From NCBI RefSeq assembly GCF_009017255.1, contig NZ_WBZB01000052.1:1-24000 (forward strand): a stretch of DNA of 24,000 nucleotides. The letters run 5' to 3'. The position numbers and the translations under genes were made by a program. Origin of the DNA: Alkaliphilus serpentinus. Lineage in GTDB: Bacteria; Bacillota; Clostridia; Peptostreptococcales; Natronincolaceae. Below, one piece after another: positions 1,908-3,341 of this stretch. Position 1 is the first letter of the stretch; the number at the start of each line of letters is the position of its first letter. Under the pieces are notes generated by a model. The model worked only from the letters and a program-made list of their open reading frames with translations. It did no database searches and had not been told where the DNA came from.

Positions 1908-2183
1908 TTAACAAGTGGGTTCACTACCAGTGAGCCAGCCTTTAATTATGGCATAGGCTCAGCCAACGCCTGTCTTAACAACTATTGCATCGAAGGGACA
2001 GTTCTTCATGCAGCCTCCACATTCTATGCAATTGTCTTGATCTAAAAATGCAACCTTATGATCTTCAATAATCAAAACATTATGGGGACAAACCTCTATA
2101 CAGCCACCACATCCAGAGCATTTATCTGGGTATAGCTTTATATTGGCAACTCCCTTTATATAGCTTAATGACATATATTCCAT
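1908..2183 (-). CDS. hgcB: HgcB, 2x[4Fe-4S] ferredoxin partner of HgcA, read through an in-frame TGA (1961..1959) as putative selenocysteine; 91 aa
   Basis: Two CxxCxxCxxxCP motifs (CSGCGGCIEVCP, CIECGGCMKNCP), located 7-10 nt downstream of hgcA. The ORF-track product stops at ...KTGVG-TGA. The frame stays open for 16 more codons (AYAIIKGWLTGSEPTC) to TAA at 1910..1908. Start taken at ATG 2183; the track uses TTG 2186. Confidence 0.7.
1921..1961 (-). other. In-frame UGA of hgcB plus downstream SECIS-like structure
   Basis: On the minus strand, UGA is followed 25 nt later by hairpin UCACU-GGU-AGUGA (1933..1921), with G-U in the apical loop. An alternative fold is UGAGCC(1961-1956)/GGCUCA(1936-1931) with inner GCC/GGC. 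No folding energy was computed. Confidence 0.4.
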
Positions 2184-2192
2184 CAACCCCTT

Positions 2193-3341
2193 CTATATAA
2201 ATAAATCTAGTAACAATAATGCCATTCCACCTAACACTCCTATTGCTACAACAGGGATTAGCCTGAGGGTTTCCCTTTGAACCCCCGAAAAGGAAGTAAA
2301 GGTGGTGGACCCTGTAAAATTAGTTCCTAGATACCCCATGATAGAAGCCATCAACAATAGATGTCCCAGAGTCTCATAACTACTTCCATATATAAAGAAA
2401 AAGTCTCTAAAATGATATACTACTCCACTCCATACTACAGCTAAGAAAAGAGCTTTTACGAAGAACATCCGAAAGGGCAATAGTGGTAATAGTGCAGGTA
2501 AAACCAAGGTTACTATTGCAATTGCTACAACATATGCAAAAGCTGTCATCACAGTTGAAATCCATAGTCCCTCAGTAGTTTTAAATAAATTGTATAGAAA
2601 TATCAGTATCAAAACTATAGGGAAATGCTTCATAGACATTATAAACTCCAAGGGGGAAACCAACAATCTCTCCTTTAGAGTGAAGGTTACCCTTCTCATC
2701 TCCCCAGTGGCCTTAAAACCATTTTCAATATAGCTTTTTATGTCACTGGCCCTAATAGGACCAAATTCTCCTTTAAAGCCTGTGTACTTAAATATTTCGT
2801 GGGCTGCTACCCCCGGAGCTGATAATTGAGGTAAAATTAATCTTCTATGATTCACCAATTCATCAAGCTGGTTTTTCTTAACCTGATAGATTATTTCCTC
2901 AGCTGAAAAGCTACCTTTTCCTGCAGCACACCATACATTTATCCCCTTGGTATCGATCACTAAAATCCATAAATTTAGGTTCTTTAATTCCCTTCTAAGC
3001 TGATCTAGGGTTAGCTTATAGTTAGCTGTTACCAAAATAGGGGATTCTTTATGGGGGGTTCCTACAGCATATACTCCTGTAGGTACATGATAGTTATCTC
3101 TATGGATACCGAATCTAACCTTCAGGTGATCAAGATGATCCTTTCGTACCAACTGAGTTTTGAGTCTTTTAATATTCCCAATAGCTGTTTCTATTTCGCC
3201 ATTAATGGAATGGGCCATATACTTATCACTGATATTGCAACGGTCTTCAGAATACTTCTTTAAAATTTTGTCCTCCAAACTGGAGGTTGTCTCTGATGGA
3301 CCTCAACAGGACTTTCCTTGAGATTTCATTTCATCATTCAT
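2193..3341 (-). CDS. hgcA: HgcA, corrinoid mercury methyltransferase, read from ATG 3341 through an in-frame TGA (3305..3303) as putative selenocysteine; 382 aa
   Basis: Signature cap-helix motif NVWCAAGK (2939..2916) within IDTKGINVWCAAGKGSF, a CFeSP-like N-terminal domain, and about 5 C-terminal TM helices. The track start TTG 3278 has no SD. The ATG at 3341 has AAAGAGGTGA 5 nt upstream and is in frame, separated only by one TGA. Confidence 0.75.
3272..3305 (-). other. In-frame UGA of hgcA plus downstream SECIS-like hairpin
   Basis: On the minus strand, UGA (3305..3303) is followed 16 nt later by the perfect hairpin CCUCCA-GUU-UGGAGG (3286..3272), with G-U in the apical loop. Confidence 0.45.

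Follow-up and report, generated by a model that had tools for sequence, protein, structure and literature searches.

Here, we analysed the hgcAB operon of Alkaliphilus serpentinus in a stretch of 24,000 nucleotides (positions 1 to 24,000 of contig NZ_WBZB01000052.1, assembly GCF_009017255.1; hereafter, the window, meaning the whole stretch of DNA that was analysed). The two genes occupy the minus strand in the order hgcA-hgcB, and each contains a single in-frame TGA codon. Judging from the sequence of this locus and of its relatives, both UGA codons are very probably decoded as selenocysteine (Sec; U in protein sequences). The genes and their TGA codons are as follows.

2193 to 3341, minus strand: full-length hgcA, 382 codons including Sec13, with the start codon ATG at 3341-3339 and the stop codon TAG at 2193-2195
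3303 to 3305, minus strand: in-frame TGA of hgcA, predicted Sec13, with Cys12 directly before it (TGT-TGA; context SCUGP)
1908 to 2183, minus strand: full-length hgcB, 91 codons including Sec75, with the start codon ATG at 2183 and the stop codon TAA at 1908-1910
1959 to 1961, minus strand: in-frame TGA of hgcB, predicted Sec75, the equivalent of Cys73 of D. desulfuricans ND132

The hgcA frame reads MNDEMKSQGKSC, the TGA at 3305-3303 and then GPSETTSSLEDK (GPSETTSSLED and onward), with one internal stop in all. Its product comprises a corrinoid-binding domain that includes the cap-helix Cys (NVWCAAGKG), together with a membrane domain at the C-terminus, and matches the NCBIfam profile HgcA_corrinoid (NF040863) with 380 bits against a cutoff of 275, over profile positions 1-324 of 325. 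This match begins at residue 57, so that the N-terminal arm with the Cys-Sec (CU) dyad lies outside the profile. The Co-ligating Cys of the cap helix is invariant in an alignment of 25 HgcA sequences, within the motif N(V/I)WCA(A/G)GK that is also found here. The ATG of hgcB lies ten bases past the hgcA stop, in the adjoining position expected for the partner of an HgcA gene. The hgcB frame reads through KTGVG, the TGA at 1961-1959 and AYAIIKGWLTGSEPTC to the TAA at 1910-1908, and encodes a 2x[4Fe-4S] ferredoxin with both CxxCxxCxxxCP motifs (CSGCGGCIEVCP and CIECGGCMKNCP), followed by a tail of 16 residues past Sec75 that ends in a single Cys (…SEPTC, Cys91) rather than in a Cys-Cys pair. The next gene on the same strand starts with ATG 1884 behind an AGGAGG site, so that the space before it is exactly filled by the extended hgcB. 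Neither hgcA nor hgcB contains a frameshift or an internal TAA or TAG; there is exactly one TGA in each. An earlier reading of the window made from its letters alone (the sequence-only reading) had proposed one in-frame TGA per gene with open frames beyond, next to Cys in hgcA and in place of Cys in hgcB, and translation of the minus strand bears this out: the TGA of hgcA follows Cys12 and that of hgcB stands at the Cys73-equivalent position, about 12 residues past the second cluster motif. Its coordinates, its numbering of U75, the single terminal Cys and the G-loop hairpins described below were likewise correct.

The residues beyond the hgcB TGA are recognizably part of the family. When the TGA is read through, with Cys in the place of Sec, HgcB scores 114.5 bits against the NCBIfam profile HgcB_ferredoxin (NF040864; cutoff 99), whereas the product cut at the TGA scores 90.9 bits, below that cutoff, the 16 post-TGA residues adding about 24 bits. 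Indeed, the tail is homologous to that of Cys-type HgcB, GVGCAxAxIxGWLTGSEPxC and onward. In both hgcA and hgcB, the UGA aligns with Cys in homologs and homology continues on both sides of it, which is the pattern by which selenoprotein genes are recognized.

The sequence-only reading had suggested a scan of the hgcAB loci of relatives for TGA at these two positions, and such a scan returned recurrent cases of both. We sampled 80 loci in a collection of species-representative genomes, 80 metagenome loci among the matches listed, and 5 contigs with the closest relatives; the metagenome matches were mostly distant relatives and added only two HgcB with Sec at position 73. For hgcB, the pattern CxxCxxCxxxCP was required twice and was loosened to admit variants ending in CA (loci L086 and L088). 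In hgcB, the configuration GVG-TGA-A(Y/C)A occurs in 8 of the 134 non-redundant hgcAB pairs (about 6%), and the other 126 have a Cys codon. The 8 Sec-type genes come from the window, Anaeromonas frigoriresistens, Peptoclostridium litorale, a metagenome-assembled genome of Peptostreptococcaceae and four metagenome contigs (L001, L002, L036, L081, L085, L086 and L088, besides the window). Position 73 thus alternates between Sec and Cys and is never occupied by a Trp codon. In hgcA, among the loci examined in detail, 17 (the window and its closest relatives included) have a C-TGA at some 106-122 codons upstream of the cap-helix motif; these 17 loci range over lineages from Clostridia to Deltaproteobacteria-like ones, and further metagenome loci also carry C-TGA. 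The N-terminus of CU-type HgcA is kept in relatives as M-x(7-9)-(N/K)K(S/A)C-U, and the TGA is identically placed in relatives in which HgcA is only about 40-50% identical. The two features go together: 7 of the 8 Sec-type hgcB adjoin a CU-type hgcA, the exception being L086.

Several observations on these samples stand apart from the counts. The exceptional locus L086 (metagenome contig Ga0316603_10258369) encodes an HgcB reading GVG-TGA-ACAIINGMLTGS, where the second residue past the Sec is Cys; its HgcA lacks the N-terminal CU extension, and the contig stops within the hgcB tail. Around the Sec of HgcA, the CU dyad alone is constant and the residues beside it vary, examples being KSCUST, KSCUVV, KACUVV, TGCUPK, GSCUDA and QNCUDT. 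CU-type proteins make up only about 20% of the sampled HgcA, in a sample biased towards relatives of this Firmicutes protein, and many of the non-CU HgcA have CC-rich N-termini.

Both UGA codons are followed by a short hairpin resembling a bacterial selenocysteine insertion sequence (SECIS).

3272 to 3286, minus strand: SECIS-like hairpin of hgcA, CCUCCA-GUU-UGGAGG, with the loop at +25 to +27 from the U of UGA
1918 to 1936, minus strand: SECIS-like hairpin of hgcB, GGCUCACU-GGU-AGUGAACC, with the GGU loop at +33 to +35 and one C/A mismatch

By sequence, each of these two elements would qualify as a bacterial SECIS, that is, a stem capped by a G-containing loop a short way past the UGA. Given that folding of the post-TGA regions as single sequences gave no significant result, comparative tests were used as evidence instead. 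Hairpins with a G-loop, a stem of 5 bp or more and a loop start at +19 to +28 are present in 17 of the 17 C-TGA hgcA loci, against a background of 15% among 5322 other in-frame positions of the same genes. The stems vary in sequence (CCUCCA/UGGAGG, UCUUCUA/UAGAAGA, CUUCCC/GGGAAG, AGAAACC/GGUUUCU, AGGCUC/GAGCCU). All Sec-type hgcB have an 8-position stem that closes a GGN loop 33-35 nt past the U of UGA. Over 7 such sequences, the cells of this stem are paired in 91% of cases, and 5 of the 8 pairs change on both sides, with compensatory replacements such as CUCACU/AGUGAG, UCGCC/GGCGA and UUCUCC/GGAGGA; none of 500 shuffles reaches the observed pairing or covariation, and controls slid along the sequence pair in 34-63%. 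In Cys-type hgcB encoding the same LTG(S/T)E peptide, the codons break the stem that closes the GGN loop, and the longest stem contiguous from the loop in 62 Cys73-type loci is 3 bp.

Some results weigh against decoding of the two UGA codons as Sec. None of selA, selB, selC and selD was found within the 24-kb window, and a tRNA scan and an Rfam gathering scan of the window gave no match. The z-scores of single-sequence folding were -0.4 to -1.9, not significant. The comparative samples are not phylogenetically independent, and the counts given above are not corrected for phylogeny. Finally, in three closely related Cys-type loci, L009, L010 and L015, there is a stable hairpin whose register is shifted, so that some of the tendency to form a hairpin is owed to the peptide and its codons. 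This 7-bp hairpin (GGCUUAC-CGGGA-GUGAGCC; about -11 kcal/mol) is located some 25-43 nt past the Cys73 codon, where the SECIS-like hairpin stands in Sec-type genes; it could be the relic of a SECIS whose Sec was replaced by Cys, or a by-product of the GWLTGSE codons. As for the capacity of the lineage, the congener A. metalliredigens is a known Sec user with 11 selenoproteins.

Alternatively, the annotation might be right as it stands, in which case the TGA would end HgcB after Gly74, HgcA would start at TTG 3278, and the flanking segments would be untranslated. Gene callers and the NCBI entry indeed model the locus in this manner (products of 361 amino acids and of 71 or 74 amino acids), and the truncated HgcA still scores 380 bits because the profile begins only at residue 57. 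However, the gain of about 24 bits from a post-TGA tail homologous to other HgcB tails, and the conservation of the TGA positions and of the downstream hairpins across lineages, would be hard to reconcile with untranslated flanks. Furthermore, in ND132 the C73A replacement abolishes methylation, so that an HgcB ending at Gly74 would miss a residue essential for activity in that organism. The initiation signals point the same way. A ribosome-binding site, GAGGTGA, precedes the ATG of the extended hgcA at about 3346-3352 on the minus strand, whereas the internal TTG 3278, the annotated start, lies inside the hgcA hairpin and has no ribosome-binding site. Upstream of the extended start there is also a promoter-like site.

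3379 to 3406, minus strand: promoter-like site, TTATCA-16 nt-TGgTATAAT, upstream of the extended hgcA start, identified by consensus match only

This candidate promoter (3406-3379), with 10 of 12 matches and an extended -10 element, is the best of the region and, like the ribosome-binding site, suits ATG 3341 rather than TTG 3278. Taken together, these observations make the annotated gene models highly improbable.

A different possibility is that the UGAs are read through but not as Sec, either by a near-cognate tRNA as Trp or Cys or through a local change of the code. This possibility draws on several metagenome contigs in which the homologous TGAs are called as Trp, yielding 'CW' proteins (P0002-P0006, P0055). 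That Trp, however, is an artefact of gene calling with an alternative code, the underlying DNA reading C-TGA; in homologs, the codon that takes the place of the TGA is one for Cys and never one for Trp; and SECIS-like hairpins are present. Moreover, TGA is the ordinary stop codon of 3 of the 25 other genes in the window, where read-through meets further stops at once, so that TGA is not reassigned here. Readthrough with a standard amino acid is therefore a very remote prospect. That the two genes are decaying pseudogenes with independent nonsense mutations, as two premature stops within one operon might suggest, is barely credible, given that there is one stop per gene, both TGA and both at a Cys-equivalent position, free of frameshifts and of TAA or TAG, with conserved sequence on either side and the same placement in relatives at about 40-50% HgcA identity. 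On this choice between recoding and two nonsense mutations, the preference of the sequence-only reading for Sec holds up well against the recurrent TGAs, the alternation with Cys, the gain in HgcB score and the conserved or covarying hairpins. We infer that selenium would actually be incorporated at both UGAs.

Recoding in hgcAB is already published, and this locus is an additional, still mis-annotated member with minor variants, namely, SCUGP and the single terminal Cys. Haft and Gwadz (bioRxiv 10.1101/2022.07.06.499078; J Bacteriol 205:e00259-22, 2023) described a UGA-spanning upstream extension with a PCUGP motif in 20 HgcA, comprising ND132 DND132_1056, G. sulfurreducens PCA GSU1440 and another 18 homologs, concluding that selenoproteins form the majority of HgcA; in addition, they reported Sec at residue 73 in 17 of 266 HgcB (6.4%) (bioRxiv 10.1101/2022.07.06.499078). 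Rows reading GVGUAYAILKG and onward, from the same clade as the window pair, appear in Supplementary Figure 8 of that work (bioRxiv 10.1101/2022.07.06.499078); the A. serpentinus sequences were not found in its supplementary alignments. A 2024 PNAS paper on HgcAB biochemistry cites the result, and a 2026 review lists both selenoprotein families, with the motifs CU and GVGU. Thus, the claim of the sequence-only reading that HgcA here 'gains' a Cys-Sec dyad does not stand, the dyad being present already in the founding HgcA of ND132 and PCA and in the 18 homologs. What the present analysis adds is comparative evidence of SECIS hairpins, of which the original paper gave none for hgcA and hgcB, and an alkaliphile in culture that comes from a serpentinising vent and would lend itself to tests of what the selenolates do.

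The A. serpentinus HgcA resembles the CU-type HgcA of Haft and Gwadz (NF040863) in having one UGA directly after a Cys codon, within a short N-terminal extension that lies ahead of the start in earlier annotation, and it shares with the ND132 and PCA proteins the residues UGP from the Sec onward. This extension is very short: 12 residues precede the Sec. Unlike the PCUGP pentapeptide described as 'perfectly conserved' in the 20 published proteins, the motif here is SCUGP, which departs from the strict pentapeptide; given the variable flanks across our sample, PCUGP is not a family-wide requirement. In HgcB, the UGA at the Cys73-equivalent position after GVG, followed by AYAI(I/L)KG, corresponds to the published GVGU form (NF040864), and the share of Sec-type genes in our sample matches the published frequency. 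Unlike the Cys-Cys terminus ascribed to 'nearly every family member', however, this HgcB ends in …GSEPTC. The hairpins, for their part, are like bacterial SECIS elements of the E. coli fdhF type and of the Gram-positive type in having a short, perfect or near-perfect stem and a G-containing loop of 3 nt (GUU and GGU) within the coding sequence; the Gram-positive SECIS that Haft and Gwadz cite for SaoC has a 7-bp stem and a GGU loop (bioRxiv 10.1101/2022.07.06.499078). The hgcB loop lies further from its UGA than the hgcA loop does, and binding of SelB to either is putative.

In terms of the residues known to matter, the pair is similar to HgcAB of ND132: both have hgcA before hgcB, a Cys in the cap helix, a pair of [4Fe-4S] motifs, a chalcogen ligand for position 73 and one or more Cys at the C-terminus. 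The minimal set of residues required in ND132 (Parks 2013; Smith 2015; Cooper 2020; PNAS 2024) is present in full in the predicted A. serpentinus proteins. The differences are that position 73 of HgcB is predicted to be Sec rather than Cys and that the tail has 16 residues with one Cys, compared to about 22 in ND132. In ND132, either of C94 and C95 is enough on its own, and activity falls by 95% in the double mutant, so that a single terminal Cys is no argument against the function of this HgcB. Cooper et al. (2020) located Cys73 where the C-terminal helix of HgcB begins and the terminal Cys residues on a flexible tail able to reach Cys73 as well as the corrinoid, and proposed these terminal residues as carriers of Hg(II) or CH3Hg+.

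By analogy to these Cys residues of ND132 and to the published proposal, a mechanism for the A. serpentinus pair can be sketched. Each UGA would be recoded by way of the G-loop hairpin located about 25 to 35 nt downstream in the mRNA, acting as a bacterial SECIS bound by SelB. HgcA would then carry a short N-terminal arm with the Cys12-Sec13 dyad ahead of its corrinoid-binding and membrane domains, and HgcB would have Sec75 in the Cys73 site, with Cys91 as the single ligand of the tail. Sec13, Sec75, Cys12 and Cys91 might serve as soft-metal ligands of one relay, involved in the capture of Hg(II) or the hand-over of CH3Hg+ around the methyl-corrinoid. The role of a selenolate in a mercury-handling enzyme is a real question, already raised by the 2022-2023 work; quicker capture of Hg, altered release of the product or a substrate other than Hg, as put forward in the sequence-only reading, are candidate answers.

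The sequence-only reading had gone further and claimed that the set of Hg-ligating thiols is redistributed in this pair. Its factual part holds, in that Sec75, the single terminal Cys and the CU dyad are all present; its implication finds weak support, given that CU is common, one terminal Cys suffices and short tails are found clade-wide. Across the sample, the tails of Sec-type HgcB have a median of 17 residues vs 26 in the Cys-type, and fewer than two downstream Cys are found in 3 of 7 complete Sec-type sequences vs 5 of 121 Cys-type sequences (Fisher p = 0.005, the sequences being related). Cys73-type HgcB of the same clade are also short-tailed, with no Cys in L083 and two in L019 and L136, so that the short tail is best taken as a trait of the clade and not as an effect specific to Sec. 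The termini within this clade range from Cys-Cys (L001, L002, L081, L088) to none (L036, L085 and the Cys73-type L083). A redistributed thiol set is thus weakly indicated and would be, at most, a clade-level trend. A bolder version can be formulated for the Peptostreptococcales-like clade as a whole, in which the HgcB tails are the shortest in the sample and often have one or no terminal Cys, alongside Sec at position 73 and the CU dyad on the arm of HgcA: the relay might have been rebuilt around selenolates, with the CU arm of HgcA replacing the shuttle role of the C-terminal Cys pair of HgcB. We consider this scenario doubtful; if it were true, such a relay could possibly have different kinetics or a physiological substrate other than Hg. 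Complete HgcB without any Cys past position 73 were also seen (L036, L085 and L083/L084, with the tails …GGGPKI, …SEHKS and …SKTSKTL).

The treatment of this locus in databases illustrates the practical side of Sec recoding. Over 361 amino acids, the window HgcA is 100% identical to the truncated A. serpentinus entry P0001, and identity falls to only about 50% with the HgcA sequences next in rank. That entry is a 361-residue 'acetyl-CoA synthase subunit gamma', and HgcB is represented by a 71-residue '4Fe-4S binding protein'. The expectation that automated annotation truncates both proteins is borne out by these entries and by the 90.9 bits of the truncated HgcB, below the cutoff of 99; given that the post-TGA residues carry about 24 bits of the family signal, the truncated HgcB loses its family name, and the truncated HgcA is deprived of its CU arm. 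Predictions of the microbes and environments that produce methylmercury draw on surveys of hgcAB, and an organism with a mis-called Sec locus may be scored as lacking hgcB or as a non-methylator. In other public collections, Sec is written as Trp, giving 'CW' in HgcA and 'GVGW' in HgcB (P0002-P0006, P0045, P0055 and P0118, from L081-L085). The DNA of L081-L085 shows TGA, the gene caller having applied a code in which TGA specifies Trp, and such entries disguise selenoproteins as apparent Trp variants.

The surroundings of the operon in the window are as follows. Downstream, a 200-residue open reading frame (1282-1884, minus strand) with the strong AGGAGG site begins 24 bases past the hgcB stop; it has no Pfam match and does not follow hgcB in relatives, where UbiA or LigB genes are found instead. 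Divergently from hgcA, at 3479-6091 on the plus strand, there is a non-homologous end-joining set comprising Ku, a gene with an ATP-dependent ligase domain and a gene with a LigD primase-polymerase domain, the ligase and primase-polymerase domains being encoded in separate, overlapping open reading frames and not in one fused LigD. Further along, at 13060-20185 on the minus strand, lies a lactate-utilisation cluster consisting of a lactate permease, a GntR/FCD regulator, EtfB, EtfA, an FAD-linked oxidase, which is probably the lactate dehydrogenase, and the lactate racemase LarA.

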